Positions 39,940 through 48,555 of a DNA stretch of 64,000 nucleotides are shown here, piece by piece. Location: positions 1 through 64,000 of the IMG/VR virus record IMGVR_UViG_3300012007_000001; one strand, written 5' to 3'. The position numbers and the translations under genes are program-made. This DNA is from a virus (Duplodnaviria > Caudoviricetes). Each line of letters opens with the position of its first letter. The first letter of the stretch is position 1. Below the pieces are notes generated by a model. The model saw nothing but the letters and a program-made list of their open reading frames with translations. It was not told the origin of the DNA and made no database searches.

Positions 39940-41295
39940 TTATTTGATTGCAATCTTACTATTCTTCTTTGTCACCTTTAGATTCTTCACTATCTTACCC
40001 AGCAGCTTGCCGAGCGTGTAGTAGCGGGCAGCGTCGATGGCATGGTTCCACTTGTCAACTGGCACGTTGATATAGTTGCCATCCTTATCCTTATCCCAAA
40101 CGTAGTTGCGCAATTCCTCATGCAGGTCAACAGAATCTTCCGTAACGAAGATGTCATCATAACTCTGCATCTTGTCAATGCCAGCCACGATTGAGCCATT
40201 CGGCTTCTGAACGGGGTATATCATTATTCCACCAAGAGCGATTTCGTCGATGAGTCGCGGGTCTGCACTATCGGCGAACACCATCAATCCGCTATACGGC
40301 TTCAGGAACTCTATGATGTCCTTTGACAGCATTCCAGTCCTGTAGCACAGCAGTTTTATATAAAGCCTGTTATCCCATATTCCGCACATCACGATGGCCG
40401 TTGGGTCATGCGTATATCCGAAGTCGATACCCAATGCAACGTGCTTGCACTGCGTCGGGAACTCCTTCACGATGCCCCATTTCTTGAACACAGCACCTTC
40501 CGCAACATCAGCCCACTGCCCCATGACGATGTGCGCATATCTTTCGGGGTCTGTTCGCTTCATGGTTTCCACGTTCTCGATGAACTGCGGGGAAAGGTTC
40601 TCTATGTTGTCGAGGTATGTCGTATGGATATGAAGCACGTCGGGATGCGTCGAAATCTGAACTGGTACACCGTCGAAGTATTCAATCCTGTGCGTGTCCT
40701 TTATATATTTCTGATAGATGAAGTGTCCGCTGTCCGTCGGGTTCATCACGATGATGATGAGGTTCTGAATGCCCAATGTACGGATGGAAAGCATGATTTT
40801 CTCAAAGTCATCAAACGAAGTCCACTCTTCCGCTTCATCACAGACGAACACCGTCAGGCCGTGGATTGATTTCAGCTTTGCCGTCTGATTGCCCGATGAG
40901 GTCTTGATGCCTCGGAACATGATATGTGAGCCTGTCTGACGGTTGATGACATCCTTCTTTGTGGCACGGAAATACTTCTGCGTACCCTCCATCTCTATCT
41001 TCTCCAAAAATTCGGGGATGACAGAAATATCGGCTGACACCATCGTATAGCGGGCGCAAAGAATCTGATGTGCAAGCAATTTGGCTTCATCACGCGGACT
41101 CGGCACGGCTTCAAAGGTCAGGCGTTCCAAGAAGGTTTCGACATTGAAAGACTTACCGCTTCCACGACCTCCAGTGACAAGCACAATCATCTTTCTGCCG
41201 TTGTTCAGATAGAGAGGATGGTAAACAGGCTGCACCTTGATACCCTTGCGCACCTGCTTCCGTAATACCTTCCGTCTATCTGCTACCCTTGTCAT
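39940..41295 (-). CDS. terL: Terminase large subunit (PBSX-type)
   Basis: GGRGSGKS Walker A, VCDEAEE Walker B, GIDFGY..DPT, ADSADP, NHAIDAARY. Confidence 0.95.
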   Translation of the reverse strand: MTRVADRRKVLRKQVRKGIKVQPVYHPLYLNNGRKMIVLVTGGRGSGKSFNVETFLERLTFEAVPSPRDEAKLLAHQILCARYTMVSADISVIPEFLEKIEMEGTQKYFRATKKDVINRQTGSHIMFRGIKTSSGNQTAKLKSIHGLTVFVCDEAEEWTSFDDFEKIMLSIRTLGIQNLIIIVMNPTDSGHFIYQKYIKDTHRIEYFDGVPVQISTHPDVLHIHTTYLDNIENLSPQFIENVETMKRTDPERYAHIVMGQWADVAEGAVFKKWGIVKEFPTQCKHVALGIDFGYTHDPTAIVMCGIWDNRLYIKLLCYRTGMLSKDIIEFLKPYSGLMVFADSADPRLIDEIALGGIMIYPVQKPNGSIVAGIDKMQSYDDIFVTEDSVDLHEELRNYVWDKDKDGNYINVPVDKWNHAIDAARYYTLGKLLGKIVKNLKVTKKNSKIAIK

Positions 41296-42017
41296 TCTTC
41301 TTTCTGTACGTCTGATTCTACATTGTTCCAGTCATCCGTCATTTCCGCATCTATCCAGTGAGATACTGGTATGCCCTGCTTGACGTTCTGCGGCAATTCT
41401 TCTTCATCCTCGATTCCGCGCTGGATTTTCCTCCAGTTCGGGTCATGGTGAAACAGAAACGTCGATAGTGCCTGAATGTTCGGTGCAAGTTCCGATTCCG
41501 TCTCTTGAACTACGGCCTTATCCGTCAGTACCGTTATGCCAGTACCGCCGCACATTGGGCATTCCTTATCGTTTCCGTTACAGATGCAACGCGCCTGCAC
41601 ATACCTTGTTGTAACCGACTTAATCTTCCTTCCACCAATGGCCGCACGGTAGTATGCAGCCCTTGCAACACCGATGGCCTTTTCCCGCGCACGGGCTAAG
41701 ACGTGTGCGATGTGAGCGGAGCGCACGGCATTTTCTGATGCTGTCCACCTGTTGTAGCTTCCGTTTTTCATGTGGCTGAACACCTCGCGTGAAATGTCGA
41801 GTTGTGCCGCAATCTCTGTGTCAGTCATCCCCTGTCCTGCAAGCTGGTCAATCTTCTTGAAAAAGATTCCTTCGGGGTCGTCGTAGTCGTATTTGGCTTT
41901 GGAGTCGGGAACCTTGACGAGCGGCGCAGATGTCTTGCGTCGCTTCGTAGCTGCCTTTTTCACCGTTTTCTTCTTCGGCTTGGCTGCTGCTTCTGTCTTT
42001 TTCTTCCTTTCTGCCAT
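41292..42017 (-). CDS. terS: Terminase small subunit with a Cys4 insertion
   Basis: HTH (GMTDTEIAAQLDIS), ELAPNIQALSTFL..HDPNW, immediately upstream of TerL. Confidence 0.75.
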   Translation of the reverse strand: MAERKKKTEAAAKPKKKTVKKAATKRRKTSAPLVKVPDSKAKYDYDDPEGIFFKKIDQLAGQGMTDTEIAAQLDISREVFSHMKNGSYNRWTASENAVRSAHIAHVLARAREKAIGVARAAYYRAAIGGRKIKSVTTRYVQARCICNGNDKECPMCGGTGITVLTDKAVVQETESELAPNIQALSTFLFHHDPNWRKIQRGIEDEEELPQNVKQGIPVSHWIDAEMTDDWNNVESDVQKEE

Positions 42018-42023
42018 GATGCT

Positions 42024-42866
42024 TTACTCCAGTATGTCGATTTTATCCATAAGTTCGCGCCCGTCCACGAATTTGCTGTTTGGGTCGAATCCCAGCTGAA
42101 TGAGTGCGCCCTGTGTCTCTTGCGGGTTTGGGAACGATACGATGAAATACGACAACATGCCGCCGTCGTTGTTGGTGTCGGATTTCTTGTTTATGCGGTC
42201 TTTGACCTTCTGAATCTCGTTGTGGCGGGCTATCTGATTTTCGGGCGTGTCATTGTAGAAGTCAACGCTCCTGTCAATCTTCGTGTTTTCCTCACTGCCG
42301 TGTGTGTTGGCATCCACCTGTGCAAGATGCTCGTTGTCCTGTGTCAGATTGCCTTTGCGCCAGTCGTTAGCGGGGTCTGTCTCTTCGGGTATGTCGGTGA
42401 TGTTCCTGAACTCGTCATCGTCAATGGGCGTTATGCCAAGCATCTCCAAATCGAAGTCATTGAAGCCTGCCGCCGTATGGTCTATCTTCCTTAGTACGTT
42501 TCTTAACAGGTCATCGTCGAAGTCGCCCTGCACAGCCTTGTTGTTAAGGAACATGTTCTGCTCCATCTCCTCCTTTTCGGGCAGATGGACTACCTCCACG
42601 CGGATTTCATAGTCATTCTCCTTGGTGTCGGGATTGTAGCGGTTCACCTCGTCGATTATCTGCACCTTCTGATGACCGCCGACAAGGTTTCCTGTATCTT
42701 CGTTCCAAATGATGCCGCCCATAAGCCCCAGCCGTTTAAGGTTGGCTTTCAGAGCCTTTCTTGCATCTTCGGTAATCTTGCGGGGATTATACTCGGCCAG
42801 CTTTATCTGACTGCGAAGGATTACCCTGCTTTCCGCTTGTTGAATCTTGCTTTTCTTCACTGCCAT
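42024..42866 (-). CDS. ParB/Srx-like N-terminal domain protein
   Basis: LAEYNPRKI..LKANLKRLG..IIWNEDTGNLVGGHQ. Confidence 0.85.
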   Translation of the reverse strand: MAVKKSKIQQAESRVILRSQIKLAEYNPRKITEDARKALKANLKRLGLMGGIIWNEDTGNLVGGHQKVQIIDEVNRYNPDTKENDYEIRVEVVHLPEKEEMEQNMFLNNKAVQGDFDDDLLRNVLRKIDHTAAGFNDFDLEMLGITPIDDDEFRNITDIPEETDPANDWRKGNLTQDNEHLAQVDANTHGSEENTKIDRSVDFYNDTPENQIARHNEIQKVKDRINKKSDTNNDGGMLSYFIVSFPNPQETQGALIQLGFDPNSKFVDGRELMDKIDILE

Positions 42867-42870
42867 AACC

Positions 42871-43647
42871 TTACTCCTCCTCCAGTTCTATGTCATCCGA
42901 CTGCAAGTTTTCAGGCATTTCCGTCTTTGTGGCGATACCGTGCTCGTAGTCGAAAATAAGTTTTTCGCAATAGGGGAACTCCTGCAAGCACCGCTGATAG
43001 TCACGCGGGTAGTTCTTTCTGAGAAACAGCAGATGGTCGAGGTCTATAGCCAACCCCTGCGACACATTGCCCTTCACGTATTCCAGCGGCCTAATCAGAG
43101 ACTTCGCCTTGATGTACTGCAACACCTCGCCGTTAGTCCACACGGCCAGCGGGTAAACCATGCCCTTCTTGGTCATGTATGTACCGTTCTGCTTCTTGAA
43201 CATCAGCAGGCGCATACGCTTCATGTAGCCGTCCACGCCCTTCATGCCGCTAAAGGCATAGGGTACGCCCGTTTCCTGCCTTACCTGTTCCTCTATCTGT
43301 CCGATGGTACGCATACGCAGGTGGTTCGGGTCTTTCTTCGGCAGCAGATAGCGGGGGTCGGGGTCACAGAAGAATCCTCCTGCCTTGAATGCGTCATGCT
43401 GAAAGTGCAGGATTTTCCGTACCTCCACATTCCTGTAATGCTTCTCAGCCCAATCAATGTAAGGCTGAACATGGTCGCAGTTGTTCACAAGGTACATGTA
43501 ATAGCAGATGACCTTCGGGAATGTCGTTGCCAGCATCTCCAGCAGGGCGATGCCGTCCTTGCCGCCAGCCGAATAGAACAGTACGGCGGTGTCTGTCTTT
43601 TCGCGGATGCCCTTGATGATGGCAATTGTCTCTGAATACTTGCTCAT
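42871..43647 (-). CDS. PP-loop / PAPS-reductase-family protein
   Basis: LFYSAGGKDG PP-loop; GMKGVDG..RMR; YPLAVWT..EV..YI. Confidence 0.8.
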   Translation of the reverse strand: MSKYSETIAIIKGIREKTDTAVLFYSAGGKDGIALLEMLATTFPKVICYYMYLVNNCDHVQPYIDWAEKHYRNVEVRKILHFQHDAFKAGGFFCDPDPRYLLPKKDPNHLRMRTIGQIEEQVRQETGVPYAFSGMKGVDGYMKRMRLLMFKKQNGTYMTKKGMVYPLAVWTNGEVLQYIKAKSLIRPLEYVKGNVSQGLAIDLDHLLFLRKNYPRDYQRCLQEFPYCEKLIFDYEHGIATKTEMPENLQSDDIELEEE

Positions 43648-43667
43648 AGTTCCGTTTATGTAATTTT

Positions 43668-44336
43668 TTAGTTTGAGCCGCCCAAAGCTGTACGCAAGGC
43701 AGCTGCTATGGTGTTCCCGCTTCCTCGGCGCAATACCCTTTCGCGGTCACTCATCATCCTATCCCAATCATCGTATGTCTTAACCCTGTCAAGGTTGATT
43801 TCCCTGCTTGGGTTATAGCTTCGCATCATTGCCGACAATCCTTTTGGCAGGGTCATGGCAACGACGGGAAGGCGTGTGCGCCCATCCCAATCAGACGGTG
43901 CTAAATCGTCATCCCATTCTACTTTTCCGATGGCTTTAGCACCATATTTCGCATACATATTCTGTAATCCACCACCATAGCAATCCAGCTTTCGGCCACC
44001 CCTTGCAGAAGCAAATGCCATGATGTTGGGCATCCTTCCGCGTGTCCTGCTGAAAACGGCCTCTACATTGCCGTCACTTGTTATGGCGAGTCCTGTCTTG
44101 TGGTCTTTAGAAAGGTAATAAGCCGTGCCACTGTTACGGTTATTCCTGAACTGTTTCTTTGTATGGGTATCAACCATCCAGCCGTGCCTGTTTTTCTTCT
44201 TGGCATAGTTGATGGCGTTTTTGAAAGCCCTTGGCGTTGCACGCTCAAATTCTACGTGAGAATGCCGAATACCCTTTCTTGTTAGGGCATTCTCGACACG
44301 CTTGTTTGCTTTTTCAATATCGCTTATGTACCTGAC
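43668..44336 (-). CDS. 222-aa basic protein with a GNAT-like domain; proposed GTC start (VRYISDIEK...)
   Basis: The frame is open for 53 codons upstream of the track ATG (44177) to GTC at 44336, directly after an in-frame TGA; G.AI..DG....VF..GGRKLDCY..L..Y...W....AP.DW pattern. Confidence 0.65.
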   Translation of the reverse strand, partial: VRYISDIEKANKRVENALTRKGIRHSHVEFERATPRAFKNAINYAKKKNRHGWMVDTHTKKQFRNNRNSGTAYYLSKDHKTGLAITSDGNVEAVFSRTRGRMPNIMAFASARGGRKLDCYGGGLQNMYAKYGAKAIGKVEWDDDLAPSDWDGRTRLPVVAMTLPKGLSAMMRSYNPSREINLDRVKTYDDWDRMMSDRERVLRRGSGNTIAAALRTALGGSN

Positions 44337-44349
44337 TCAGCCGTTCCGA

Positions 44350-44547
44350 TTACATTGTCAAAATATCAGCCATCAATTCAGGGCTGCTATAATCCATGTC
44401 ACTATCCAGCGAATCGTCGCTTGGGCTGTCTGCCAGTTTTCTTGCCTCATCCTCTGTCAGGTAAGGCTTGCCGTTCTCCTTGATTTTGCAGAGCTCCTCA
44501 AAAAGACGCTGGCGATACTCAGCTATCTGTTCTTTTGTATGCTTCAT
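44350..44547 (-). CDS. 65-aa acidic-tailed protein with its own operator-overlapped promoter
   Basis: ORF track; TATCTTTG at about 44567-44574 and operator-like site 44570-44592. Confidence 0.7.
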   Translation of the reverse strand: MKHTKEQIAEYRQRLFEELCKIKENGKPYLTEDEARKLADSPSDDSLDSDMDYSSPELMADILTM

Positions 44548-44714
44548 TGTTGTTCATTTAATAGTGCAAAGATAAAGCAAATAAATTGATTTACCAAATA
44601 TTTCTCGTTATTTTTTGTTGCATATCACTTTATTTAACTCTTCCGCTAAATCAGAATGGCCACCACCATCATTTTGCTGACGGCGATGGCCATGATGTCG
44701 GCTCAAGGCAACCT

Positions 44715-44969
44715 TTAGCCCTCAGAGCCTGCGGCAGCACGAAGGGCGGCAGAGCGCAAGGCTGCACCACGAACACCACGCGCACGCATAGCGGCTACGT
44801 TCTGACGTGCTTGTCGGGCGAATGCCACACGAAGGTCTTGACGACGCTGTTCACGGTTTCCCCAACCTGCACGGCCTTCCGCATAGCGGCCACCATTTGC
44901 CAGTCGGCGACTACCTGCACCGTTCACGTTTGACGTGACACCAGTGATTCGATTGATTCTGTTTCTGAC
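44715..44969 (-). CDS. 84-aa Arg/Ala/Gly-rich protein; proposed GTC start (VRNRINRITG...)
   Basis: The frame is open for 14 codons upstream of the track GTG (44927) to GTC at 44969, directly after an in-frame TGA. Confidence 0.65.
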   Translation of the reverse strand, partial: VRNRINRITGVTSNVNGAGSRRLANGGRYAEGRAGWGNREQRRQDLRVAFARQARQNVAAMRARGVRGAALRSAALRAAAGSEG

Positions 44970-45001
44970 TCAGCATTCAAATTAAAGGGTTCTACATTAT
45001 G

Positions 45002-45412
45002 TTAGTTGTCTGAATGGGCTTCCTGTTCCCCGTCGAAGATTTCACAGTTCTCCGTCTGCAATACTTCGCCGAGTTCATACTGCATCTGCGTAACATAGTA
45101 GGTCTCGCCGTTGTCAACGAATGTAAGCGGCTCACCAGTCTTTTCGTCATCCATCTGAACGACCTTAATCCCGATGACCTGTACCAGCAGGCGGGGGGCA
45201 TTCTTCTGACGGCCATTGATAAGCTGCAAGGCATCATAGCCCACAACCTCGACATCGCTTGTGCCGTCGCCGTTGTCCTTTTCCACCAAATACTGCTTGG
45301 CGTTACGCGGGTAAACAAATCGGTGCTCGACCTTCTGCTCACCCTTCAAGATTTTCTTGAAACTGTCGCGCTTGATTTGTAGCGTCAGTACATCTAATCC
45401 TTCTAAATTCAT
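45002..45412 (-). CDS. ASCH (PUA-like) domain protein
   Basis: LTLQIKRDSFKKILKGEQKVEHR, a variant of the GxKxxExR motif, then YDALQLING. Confidence 0.75.
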   Translation of the reverse strand: MNLEGLDVLTLQIKRDSFKKILKGEQKVEHRFVYPRNAKQYLVEKDNGDGTSDVEVVGYDALQLINGRQKNAPRLLVQVIGIKVVQMDDEKTGEPLTFVDNGETYYVTQMQYELGEVLQTENCEIFDGEQEAHSDN

Positions 45413-45445
45413 TTTAATTCCGATTTAATTGTTACTATAATATTG

Positions 45446-45518
45446 TTGCGGGAGCAGGGCTCGAACCTGCGACCTCCAGTAAGTCAGACTGTTAAGCTAC
45501 CAACTGCTCCATCCCGCG
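45446..45518 (-). tRNA. Atypical tRNA: initiator (fMet) body with a GAC (Val) anticodon; CCA not encoded
   Basis: CGCGGGA UG GAGC AGUUGGUA GCUU A ACAGU CU-GAC-UU ACUGG AGGUC GCAGG UUCGAGC CCUGC UCCCGCA A; C1xA72, A11-U24, U37/U38. Confidence 0.88.
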
Positions 45519-45526
45519 ATTTTCGG

Positions 45527-45599
45527 CAAAGTTACACATATTACTTTTGTCATGTGAATCTATGCCTACATTATATTTCACCAATTTATATTAGTGAAA
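45527..45599 (-). promoter_or_regulatory. Putative late promoter 4 (tRNA-packaging operon)
   Basis: TAACTTTG 45527-45534; TTTCAC-N12-GTGAAA 45576-45599; 41-bp gap. Confidence 0.75.
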
Positions 45600-45651
45600 G
45601 AATCGCGGTATTTTGCAGCTGTTTCACTTCCAATTATTCAATCATCTTGCT

Positions 45652-45823: not shown

Positions 45824-46759
45824 TTACCATTCCGCAAAGATGTTATGACTGGCATCAACGACTTGCTCGGAGTACTGAACACGGCAATCCACCTTGTTTC
45901 TGATGCTGTCTTTCCAGTATATCTTAGACTTCGGGGCTTTCGCTGCCACAATCTCCTGCACGTCATTGACGAACTTCACTATGCCGTCAAGCGTGATGGG
46001 CTTCTTGTTGTGCTTCTTGCCGCTTTCCAGCCCTATCTTATAGACATCGCAGAATCCCAATGATTCTTTTATCATCTCCAGCGAATCATCCAAGTCTATC
46101 ACAGGCTCGATGCTGGCAAAGGTATGAACGCCGTATTCCGCGCTAATTCTCGCCATTGCATCCACACGCTGCATATTCGTTGACGCATTCGGCTCAAGGT
46201 CATCCCTGCCTGTCAGCGTGAAACCGACGCACAGGTTCTTACCGCCATTGACCAGCAGACGATGACCACCGATTCCGTACACCCACTCAGAGCGTTTCGT
46301 CAGCATGGTAACTGGCACTGGAGGCAAATCGTTTCTTCTGCTTCCGTCCTCGTTACATCCCAACGCGATATAGGCACACCGCATGAATGTATAGAAGGTG
46401 TCTAACGGCTGCTGTAGGCACGGGTCACTGCTGAACGTGAAGAAGATTCCACGGCCATCTACCATGATTCTATCCCTGTACCTGTTCAGTTCCTTCTCAA
46501 ACACTTGCACGGCCTTGTTACATCCGACAATGAATGCGAGTTTTCTTGAAGCGTCGCAGTCATTCTTGAATTTGACATCCTTTGCCGTCAGCTGAAACTC
46601 CTTTTTCAGTTGAGGGATTTTCTGACCCATTCCGTGACCTAACACACCTTTCTTGCAGTAGCAATACTCACAGTCATTTGAACACCCGACAAAGATATTT
46701 GCCGCCCAAGGAGCGTATTCACGGGCTTTGCCCGATGGCTGATAAATAATCTTTCCCAT
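45824..46759 (-). CDS. Radical SAM protein (start revised to MGKIIYQP)
   Basis: GCSNDCEYCYC (CxxxCxxC), SSDP, LTK, TLTG..LEPNA, SIEPVI. Confidence 0.85.
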   Translation of the reverse strand: MGKIIYQPSGKAREYAPWAANIFVGCSNDCEYCYCKKGVLGHGMGQKIPQLKKEFQLTAKDVKFKNDCDASRKLAFIVGCNKAVQVFEKELNRYRDRIMVDGRGIFFTFSSDPCLQQPLDTFYTFMRCAYIALGCNEDGSRRNDLPPVPVTMLTKRSEWVYGIGGHRLLVNGGKNLCVGFTLTGRDDLEPNASTNMQRVDAMARISAEYGVHTFASIEPVIDLDDSLEMIKESLGFCDVYKIGLESGKKHNKKPITLDGIVKFVNDVQEIVAAKAPKSKIYWKDSIRNKVDCRVQYSEQVVDASHNIFAEW

Positions 46760-47925
46760 ATTACTGAAACTTAGAAAAATCCTTCTTGAAAACGACAAAC
46801 TTACCGTCAGTCCGTGCCTTGCACTTGCCAATCTGCGCACGCACAGAATCTACTTCGCAATGCTTCTGCTTCCTGACCACCTTTCCGTGAAAGAAACATC
46901 CACGGCAGAACGAGTCAGCCTCCTGAACTTTCATACGAACACCGTCACAGGTGAACACATCATTAATCGGCCTTTCCATATCACTTACCTTTTTCATCAT
47001 AGGGCTTGCCGCAAAACGGGCAGAATTTCACCTTGTCATCCAAACCGATATAGCGGTTATGCTTTGAATAGTTCCCGCTCTTGGTCTTTGGCCTGAACCA
47101 TCCAGTTACATATATCCGACCGTCAGGCGATACATGTTCCACACCGCCGACACCGTACTGCTTGCACAGTTCAGCCTTAATCTTAGCTACACAATCACAC
47201 ATATTCTATTGTTTCTTAAATGGATTCTGAAACACTAACTTTGTCTTTTTTATAAAATCCCTTCCAGCAGTTCCTTTCGGTGCTGTCTCTTCATACCAAA
47301 CGACTCTCCGCAATAGGAGAGACTTTGAATTGATATGCAACCAGCACCGATGCTCCTTTGACGGGCTACAACATTCAAAGTCACAACAGCATTCATCACG
47401 CCAAGGGTTATGTATGGCGATTCCAAACACTTGCAAGAAAGACTGAATACGCGCAGAAAAAGCAATGTTTTTCCGAAACGCTGTCTTCCAATAATATTTT
47501 CTGTAATACCAAATCTTTTTCATACAATCTATTTCTTATGTCTGTTGGCATAGATTTTCATGGCCGTCTTTTTGTTCCGCGCCATGATTTTCTCGCCGTG
47601 GATTACAAACTCATGCTCTTGCATGTTCACACCATACATCTGATGATTCCGCGCCTTTTCCTCTTCGGTTAGTTCACGGCCTCCAGTTGCTCTATGCCTT
47701 CTGCGTGTGCCAGTATCAAATATTGACGTATCACCAGCACCAGCCACAGCCGCCATCATCAGCGTAGCGGCCATCAGTTTGCTAATCTTTCTCATTTCGG
47801 TTCCTCCTCTGCCTTTTCAGGTCGCCATTCATTGAAGAATCCGCATTCACGGGTGGCGTTTTCATGGTTGCCAAATCCCATCTTGTGCAAATCCAGTTCC
47901 TTGAACTCGACCATCTTTCTTACAT

Positions 47926-48555
47926 TCATAACCATTCGATTTTATTGTTTGTGATATAGTAGTGTGACTTGCAGGGAAATTCAAAGTTCCCTACAGACGG
48001 GCGCATCGTTACCGTTCCGTCATCGTTCTTTGTCAGACTCCAGCCGCCAGCCTTGAACGGCATGACCACCAACTCGCCACATCCACAGGCGCACAGGTGG
48101 GATGTCGTTTCAAACTTTTCGCTGATATACAGTTTTCCGTATTCAAGCTGATTCGGCAAATACTCCACAAAGACGGGCTCGATTCTTTCAAGTCGCTTCC
48201 CAAGCGTTTTCTCGTTGTGAAGTTCAATCCTGATGGCCTCCTGCAAGGGCGGCAGAATCTTCTCGGCAAACCGCTTGCACGATGCCTCGACCTTTCGGCC
48301 TGTTGCCGTGTATGCTATTCCGTTATACATCTTGTTACCGAAATAGTCAACACCGATATTAAGAATGAACTCGCGAAAATCATCCCTGCCTGTGCTGCCC
48401 CAGCAGAAATTGAAATTGCCATAGTCTGTGACAGCGAAGAAATAACCGTCGCCAGTCAGAATTACACGGCCAAGAAAGCCGCCAAACTCGTTGTGAAGAA
48501 TATACATCCACACAACAACACCGTTTCCGTGATTATTTGTTATTACATTTTTCAT
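47926..48555 (-). CDS. Two-domain hypothetical with a Cys/His-rich C-terminus (DUF6527-like)
   Basis: HLCACGCGE...W.L...TMRPSVGN..PCKSHYYI. Confidence 0.55.
   Translation of the reverse strand: MKNVITNNHGNGVVVWMYILHNEFGGFLGRVILTGDGYFFAVTDYGNFNFCWGSTGRDDFREFILNIGVDYFGNKMYNGIAYTATGRKVEASCKRFAEKILPPLQEAIRIELHNEKTLGKRLERIEPVFVEYLPNQLEYGKLYISEKFETTSHLCACGCGELVVMPFKAGGWSLTKNDDGTVTMRPSVGNFEFPCKSHYYITNNKIEWL

Follow-up and report, generated by a model that had tools for sequence, protein, structure and literature searches.

A probable phage-encoded alternative initiator tRNA reading GUC start codons in Bacteroidota phages

Introduction

Why would a phage carry a tRNA that has the body of a bacterial initiator and the anticodon GAC, and how are two conserved genes (here called A and B) within 1.2 kb downstream of it translated when their N-termini offer no ATG, GTG or TTG? 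Both questions are raised by a locus in the window, that is, the whole stretch of 64,000 nucleotides that we analysed, which forms the first 64 kb of an IMG/VR phage genome, complete at 119,237 bp. This genome has direct terminal repeats, and nearly all genes lie on the minus strand. Related tRNAs are present in prophages of Bacteroides, Parabacteroides, Prevotella, Muribaculaceae and Chryseobacterium, which identifies the hosts as Bacteroidota, and 14 metagenome studies of animal gut and rumen contain the stretch or 95-97% relatives of it; the source is a gut phage of Bacteroidota. A megablast search of the region against phage records gave no match. RNA libraries (metatranscriptomes) of three studies hold contigs, again 95-97% relatives, that span positions 43600-45600, although these are assemblies that may contain DNA and are no proof of transcription, RNA ends or CCA addition.

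The answer for which we argue with good confidence, on the basis of comparative sequence analysis, is that the tRNA is a phage-encoded alternative initiator that reads GUC, which would thereby serve the phage as a private start codon.

Results

The tRNA combines an initiator-type body with a remodelled anticodon arm

The elements from which the analysis starts are the following:
45446-45518, minus strand: initiator-type tRNA with anticodon GAC (ARAGORN, Rfam, sequence, family alignment and pair counts).
45527-45534, minus strand: TAACTTTG, a match to the Bacteroides -7 box TAnnTTTG (sequence and family motif count).

The only tRNA that ARAGORN detects in the window is a Val(GAC) at 45445-45518 on the minus strand. 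The Rfam tRNA model RF00005 matches from 45518 to 45446 over its full length (model positions 1-71), scoring 49.8 bits (E 1.1e-7) against a gathering threshold of 29 bits. The acceptor stem, CGCGGGA/UCCCGCA, has a C1xA72 mismatch followed by G2-G5:C68-C71, and the discriminator base is A73; the D stem GAGC/GCUU yields A11:U24, and the T arm is GCAGG/CCUGC. The anticodon stem, ACAGU/ACUGG, consists of four pairs and an A27.G43 mismatch, and the loop CUGACUU holds the anticodon GAC followed by U37 and U38.

In Escherichia coli, the determinants recognised by Fmt are an unpaired 1:72, G2:C71, C3:G70 (and G4:C69) and A73, whereas a paired 1:72 together with Y11:R24 makes an elongator tRNA a substrate of EF-Tu; the identity elements of E. 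coli ValRS are A35, C36 and A73. Measured by these features, the phage tRNA has the unpaired 1:72, G2:C71, C3:G70, G4:C69, A73 and A11:U24 of an initiator, but its anticodon is GAC instead of CAU, and the three G:C pairs of the initiator anticodon stem (GGG/CCC) are replaced by A29-U41, G30-C40 and U31-A39. It lacks the paired 1:72, the Y11:R24 and the purine 37 of an elongator tRNA-Val, and the ValRS identity bases A35, C36 and A73 are all present.

These observations bear out the description in the initial annotation of this DNA, which had reported, leaving the strand unstated, an acceptor, D and T body of the initiator type, had pointed to U37, and had reported that GGG/CCC was replaced by a paired CAGU/ACUG stem, the four pairs of which are indeed found in the sequence. 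It had also warned that a plain tRNA-Val label would be misleading, with which the initiator body, the 1:72 mismatch and A11:U24 agree. The gene is directly followed on its 3' side by CAA, so that CCA is not encoded, as had been noted; as a distinguishing mark, however, the missing CCA does not hold up, since the two other tRNAs of the phage (Gln and Glu, near 78.2-78.5 kb and hence outside the window) and many tRNAs of Bacteroidota hosts likewise lack an encoded CCA.

The closest tRNAs in 50,697 phage records, at ~83% identity, are annotated as tRNA-Met or tRNA-fMet and belong to Erwinia and Salmonella phages. We also read all 72 tRNA matches in the genome of a Bacteroides host (L169). The tRNAfMet of this host has the CGCGG acceptor, C1xA72, A11:U24, GGG/CCC and the anticodon CAU; its own tRNA-Val has the anticodon UAC only, and the sole GAC tRNA in the genome is the initiator-like one of a prophage.

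The box TAACTTTG, whose end is 8 nt ahead of the first tRNA nucleotide, matches TAnnTTTG, which we take to be the -7 promoter element of Bacteroides. Of 65 distinct family members, 40 have this motif in the 45 nt before the tRNA, compared with 2.3% of background 45-nt windows. The box is likely to be the promoter of the tRNA.

The tRNA family is maintained by selection

Almost all relatives of the large terminase gene in IMG/VR have a tRNA of the same kind 3-4 kb upstream. For the family alignment and the pair counts we used 43 distinct sequences from Bacteroidota phages and prophages, in which the initiator-type body is conserved; apart from the CCA, every feature listed in the initial annotation recurs in these relatives. 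In this set, 94.9% of cells are paired, versus 77.7% in shuffles, and compensatory double changes occur at every pair of the anticodon stem and of the T stem, five pairs in each. Every one of the 43 has the acceptor pairs 2-5 (G2-G5:C68-C71) and A11:U24, and A73 hardly varies. U33, A35, C36, U37 and U38 are invariant as well, so that the anticodon loop varies at wobble position 34 alone, which is G or A. The pairs 29-31:39-41 are A-U, C-G and U.G in most relatives. This pattern of substitution indicates that the unpaired 1:72, the Fmt determinants and the ValRS identity bases are kept by selection and that the GGG/CCC pairs are not. On the same evidence the tRNA is under selection and is no decayed copy, in line with the earlier proposal that the anticodon arm is selected rather than decayed, which the compensatory changes in its stem support.

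The alignment also bears on the possibility that we are dealing with an ordinary elongator tRNA-Val(GAC), which would supplement a host that has UAC only and allow faster reading of GUC and GUU. The ARAGORN call, the tRNA-Val(UAC)-only complement of the Bacteroides host that was examined, and the bases A35, C36 and A73, which fit ValRS identity, all speak for such a role. Nevertheless, we regard it as very improbable. An elongator would profit from a 1:72 pair, which a single mutation could create; still, 42 of the 43 relatives leave this position unpaired, in six different forms (C.A, C.C, C.U, U.C, U.U and A.A), and the Fmt determinants, A11:U24 and U37 are invariant. Moreover, an elongator would leave unexplained the genes without a start codon, the GA-GUC context, the AGU/ACU class and the use of ATG in relatives that lack the tRNA, all of which are described below. 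It should be noted that an initiator may still bring some benefit as an elongator, the tRNA-Val of the host being UAC only.

A second alternative is that the tRNA takes no part in decoding and acts as a decoy, sponge or guide for a toxin or factor that recognises initiators (a VapC-type nuclease, Fmt or IF2, for example). The acceptor and D arm are initiator-like, as this would require, and phage tRNAs that evade anticodon nucleases are reportedly known. The part cut by tRNAfMet-specific nucleases is the anticodon arm, however, and this arm is unlike that of tRNAfMet; furthermore, the loop varies at position 34 only, the ValRS identity bases remain constant (A35 and C36 never vary), and the covariation between anticodon and first codon described below is not predicted. 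We consider this alternative the least probable of the three that we discuss. Neither role proposed in the initial annotation is supported: a decoy for tRNA-fMet-targeting toxins would be expected to retain the anticodon arm of tRNAfMet, which this tRNA has lost, and the guide RNA found no support, the anticodon instead changing together with the first codons of nearby genes.

Two other readings of the element were rejected. The anticodon loop does not serve as a -35 or -7 promoter box, because the stems covary as RNA, including U.G pairs. Nor is the element the remnant of an attP site, as it is a whole tRNA with a mismatched 1:72 in a lytic-type genome of 119 kb with terminal repeats.

A second, abundant family of initiator-like tRNAs was also found (L087:7534-7606 and L244-L323, for example L246, L247, L304 and L323). 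Its members have U1.U72 and G37, retain GGG/CCC and carry the loop UUAGUGU, which corresponds to the anticodon AGU. About 19 of the 80 matches to a 15-mer of this AGU tRNA had no tRNA acceptor upstream and were set aside as probably due to chance. Scans of IMG/VR with exact patterns of the anticodon arm and T arm of the GAC tRNA returned one true relative; the remaining matches were chance or unrelated, L003-L005 being coding DNA and L007 a tRNA-Asn.

Another tRNA-like gene, designated 'tRNA-???(ca)' by ARAGORN, was observed at L185:5557-5627, L192:9565-9634 and L199:1606-1675, and also in L197 and L198. It has normal acceptor, D and T arms, and its anticodon arm is a 5-bp stem with a 4-nt loop and no anticodon. 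It is located near lysozyme and terminase genes in phages of ~100 kb that belong to the class with anticodon AAC.

Two genes downstream of the tRNA open on GTC

The two genes and their start motifs are the following:
44965-44974, minus strand: start motif GCTGA-GTC-AG of gene A, with the GTC at 44969-44967.
44715-44969, minus strand: gene A, an Arg-rich protein of 84 aa, GTC opening directly after TGA.
44332-44341, minus strand: start motif GCTGA-GTC-AG of gene B, with the GTC at 44336-44334.
43668-44336, minus strand: gene B, a phrog_2563-like protein of 222 aa, GTC opening directly after TGA.
44350-44553, between genes A and B: an acidic ORF of 67 aa with a normal ATG and no match in PHROGs or Pfam.

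The 10-mer GCTGAGTCAG heads both genes. It has two copies in the window, both on the coding strand, compared with 0.05 expected from shuffling, and these two sites are the only occurrences of TGAGTCAGR in the whole 119-kb genome.

In gene B, the first ATG, GTG or TTG is codon 54, and several observations indicate that the preceding codons are coding. The match to PHROG 2563 reaches residue 33 once the N-terminal extension is included, and the N-termini of full-length homologs align to residues 1-30. Compared with the 85%-identical relative L183/L184, codons 1-53 have a dN/dS of 0.07, and the gene as a whole has one of 0.09; most of the changes in the extension are synonymous, and an in-frame indel of 3 nt lies beside the GTC. 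In contigs of other relatives, 7 of the 8 listed differences in the extension fall at third codon positions. Within the first six codons, GTC is the sole plausible start that the window phage and L183 have in common. Among the terminase-derived loci, a gene B HMM recognised members of the family in the closest relatives only. The domain of gene B is also seen inside giant phage proteins of 1,400-3,400 aa (L200-L232).

Gene A, whose first GTG is codon 15, has a dN/dS of 0.23 relative to L183 and belongs to a family of small basic proteins that follow the ASCH-like gene (described below) in most of the tRNA-bearing loci; like the 67-aa ORF, it had no match in searches of PHROGs and Pfam. We screened the tRNA-bearing loci for conserved ORFs that have no canonical start in their first 15 codons and lie outside other ORFs. 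The highest-ranking cluster was the gene A family, with members in 36 loci that begin with TGA-GTC-AGA or AGC-[C/A]GA-GTC and have a Gly-rich motif at the end; in one member, 49 of 53 codons lie ahead of any canonical start. Further clusters, consisting of small basic proteins and of the gene B family, behave in the same way. An earlier screen for GTC at the consensus ATG columns of conserved genes found none, and this screen is blind to families that wholly lack a canonical start. A more permissive scan, which accepted any GTY following a stop, produced too much noise to be used alone.

The proteins with a GUY start (43668-44336 and 44715-44969 in the window, and homologs in L016-L124) have an Arg/Lys-rich N-terminus, and most end in GLSGG, GLSNG or ALGG. 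The Gly-rich ends, the basic N-termini and the embedding of the gene B domain in giant proteins suggest that they are virion-internal or ejected proteins. In addition, AGGAGG, a strong SD-like sequence, is present 8 nt upstream of several GUY starts (L034, L035, L048, L059 and L084), which is unusual because Bacteroidota make little use of SD pairing.

The first codon of these genes follows the anticodon of the tRNA

We counted first codons over distinct homologous gene contexts, according to the anticodon of the initiator-like tRNA:
Anticodon GAC: 46 GTC, 10 GTT and 2 apparent ATC.
Anticodon AAC: 15 GTT and 0 GTC.
Anticodon AGU (with G37): 14 ACT.

These sequences are related, and the independent switches of anticodon and codon behind the counts are few, amounting to at least three classes plus one recent switch. 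The recent switch is that of a Bacteroides prophage (L122/L331), which lies outside the 15 AAC contexts: its tRNA has a GAC-type body with a recent G34A change, and its gene A homolog opens on GTT. One apparent exception to the rule was noticed in L058, where a homolog of the small basic family ~12.5 kb downstream of the tRNA is headed by GCTGA-ATC-AAA, with ATC where relatives have GTC.

The bases upstream of the first codon follow the tRNA as well. Positions -2 and -1 are GA in 71 of 71 GUY starts, the tRNAs of which have U37 and U38, and position -1 is C, complementary to G37, in 14 of 14 ACU starts. In three loci (L022, L031 and L041) a covariance-model search found no tRNA although the region was covered, and there the homologs begin with ATG-GCA, after which the same basic residues follow. 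An initiator-like tRNA was present in 159 loci, and in 127 of them the fetched DNA contains one or more homologs with the cognate start; many of the others are truncated. Taken together, the joint change of anticodon and first codon points to initiation at a private start codon.

A third alternative is that the host tRNAfMet starts these genes, either at GUC as a near-cognate codon or by coupling and re-initiation, and that the phage tRNA has another task, for instance as a processing signal for RNase P/Z at the head of a late operon. The tRNA does occupy a fixed place at the head of the module that runs from the ASCH-like gene to the terminase genes and has its own promoter box, and many of the GUC starts come directly after TGA. 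However, initiation by host tRNAfMet leaves it unexplained that the first codon (GUC, GUU or ACU) follows the phage anticodon and that the -1 base follows position 37, and an invariant loop sequence is not expected of a mere processing signal. We therefore judge this alternative very improbable. Fusion to the upstream gene by frameshifting or read-through is excluded, since the in-frame TGA lies downstream of the stop of the previous gene, and in many homologs the codon before GTC is AGA or CGA rather than TGA, the nearest stop being located a few codons upstream.

The neighbouring module uses canonical start codons

The remaining genes of the module are the following:
45002-45412, minus strand: phrog_625 protein of 136 aa, weakly ASCH-like, ATG start (homology).
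42871-43647, minus strand: PAPS-reductase-like gene, canonical start.
42024-42866, minus strand: ParB-like gene, canonical start.
41292-42017, minus strand: small terminase gene, canonical start.
39940-41295, minus strand: large terminase gene, canonical start.

The tRNA is directly followed by the phrog_625 gene, with a gap of 4-45 nt, in 68 of the 69 loci that were analysed first. Its likeness to ASCH was seen only in a homolog (L087), which scored 20.6 bits, below the Pfam cut-off of 21.2, and searches of Pfam and of PDB sequences with the protein of the window gave nothing usable. ASCH is a PUA-like RNA-binding fold, so that the phrog_625 protein could act on or with the tRNA. Non-canonical starts were sought in the ASCH-like, PAPS-reductase-like, ParB-like and both terminase genes, all of which proved to be canonical.

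Discussion

If the tRNA is an initiator, the following sequence of events can be proposed. The tRNA would descend from a Bacteroidota tRNAfMet, of which it has kept the initiator marks of the acceptor and D arm, and would be transcribed from its own TAnnTTTG promoter and receive its CCA from the host. The host ValRS would charge it with valine by way of A35, C36 and A73, after which Fmt of the host would formylate it; EF-Tu would be excluded, and IF2 would deliver the tRNA to the P site of the 30S subunit. There it would pair with the GUC starts of a few phage genes, which in the window are gene A (44969) and gene B (44336). Through U37, and probably U38, the helix would also take in the A at -1 and the G at -2 of GA-GUC, giving four to five base pairs. 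The start codon would thus be legible to the phage alone, and the Arg-rich proteins would presumably be made only once the tRNA is present.

The main difficulty for this proposal is the absence of GGG/CCC from the GAC and AAC classes. In E. coli, the three G:C pairs of the anticodon stem are needed for selection in the P site and for proofreading by IF3. The extended pairing through U37 and U38 may compensate for the missing pairs, perhaps with further help from the SD-like AGGAGG or from a phage factor. Another point to be considered is that valine is a poorer substrate of Fmt than methionine in E. coli (bioRxiv 10.1101/2021.05.25.445580).

Several known systems resemble the proposed one in part. 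The tRNAfMet of the Bacteroides host L169 and the CAU copies of Erwinia and Salmonella phages share with the phage tRNA the unpaired 1:72, CGCGG, A11:U24, A73 and similar D and T arms; the phage tRNA differs from them in having GAC instead of CAU, no GGG/CCC and U37 instead of A37, and its amino acid is presumably valine, not methionine. With an elongator tRNA-Val(GAC) it has the anticodon, A35, C36 and A73 in common, and it differs in its mismatched 1:72, A11:U24 instead of Y11:R24, pyrimidine 37 and initiator body; the loop of E. coli tRNA-Val, for comparison, begins UUGAC. Phage suppressor tRNAs recode stop codons in late genes, so that there, too, a viral tRNA changes the meaning of a codon for a subset of phage genes. 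Suppressor tRNAs act in elongation at stop codons, whereas initiation would be the step served by the GAC tRNA, which would establish a new start codon.

The closest analogues are engineered initiators, which combine a changed anticodon with a cognate non-AUG start and an N-terminal valine and are orthogonal to normal genes. The RajBhandary laboratory reportedly made GAC and CUA mutants of the initiator. An engineered E. coli i-tRNA(AAC) initiates at GUU, and the resulting formyl-valine N-termini were detected by mass spectrometry (bioRxiv 10.1101/2021.05.25.445580); in another study, 31 anticodon mutants of the E. coli initiator were described (PMC11744186), and many other anticodon mutants work in vitro. 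These initiators are laboratory-made and keep GGG/CCC and A37, whereas the phage tRNA is natural, virus-encoded and conserved in many phages, and has a remodelled stem, U37/U38 and a GA context upstream of its codon. A37 of tRNAfMet has been shown to pair with a U at position -1 of the mRNA, and A37G and A37U to favour the complementary -1 base (Hollerer and Jeschek 2023, PMC10018350). This effect is a modest modulation of AUG starts, while in the phages the -1 base is invariant and changes from A to C when position 37 changes from U to G. The published AAC initiator and the published pairing between 37 and -1 make the proposed mechanism feasible. In a full-text literature search we found engineered non-AUG initiators and no natural, virus-encoded one.

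Extending the argument from this tRNA to its relatives, and with somewhat less confidence, we think it likely that phages of Bacteroidota have a natural form of orthogonal initiation, in which initiator tRNAs with the anticodons GAC, AAC and AGU are used at GUC, GUU and ACU starts, positions 37 and 38 read the bases -1 and -2, and the products are small Arg-rich proteins that are probably late or virion-associated. If this is true, a virus would have reassigned a start codon in nature. Few features of the genetic code are as constant as the codon used for starting, and initiator tRNAs that read codons other than AUG have so far been known as laboratory constructs only. The tRNA would then be a switch that ties the synthesis of certain phage proteins to a tRNA of the phage itself, and it would imply that the bacterial ribosome can use an initiator without GGG/CCC, given extended pairing of the loop. 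It would also have practical implications: ready-made orthogonal pairs of initiator and start codon would be at hand for synthetic biology in Bacteroides, and gene callers would be expected to miss or truncate genes systematically in phages and prophages that are widespread in the gut and rumen.

Finally, some observations were made on genes around the locus. Upstream of the tRNA, a protein of 338 aa (45824-46840) has a weak match, below the cut-off, to the radical-SAM CxxxCxxC motif, and a protein of 209 aa (47926-48555) has a C-terminal DUF6527. The large terminases of eight loci (L035, L044, L046, L056, L062, L086, L185 and L188) are 600-820 codons long, and the gene calls of L185 and L188 have Pfam matches to inteins or homing endonucleases.
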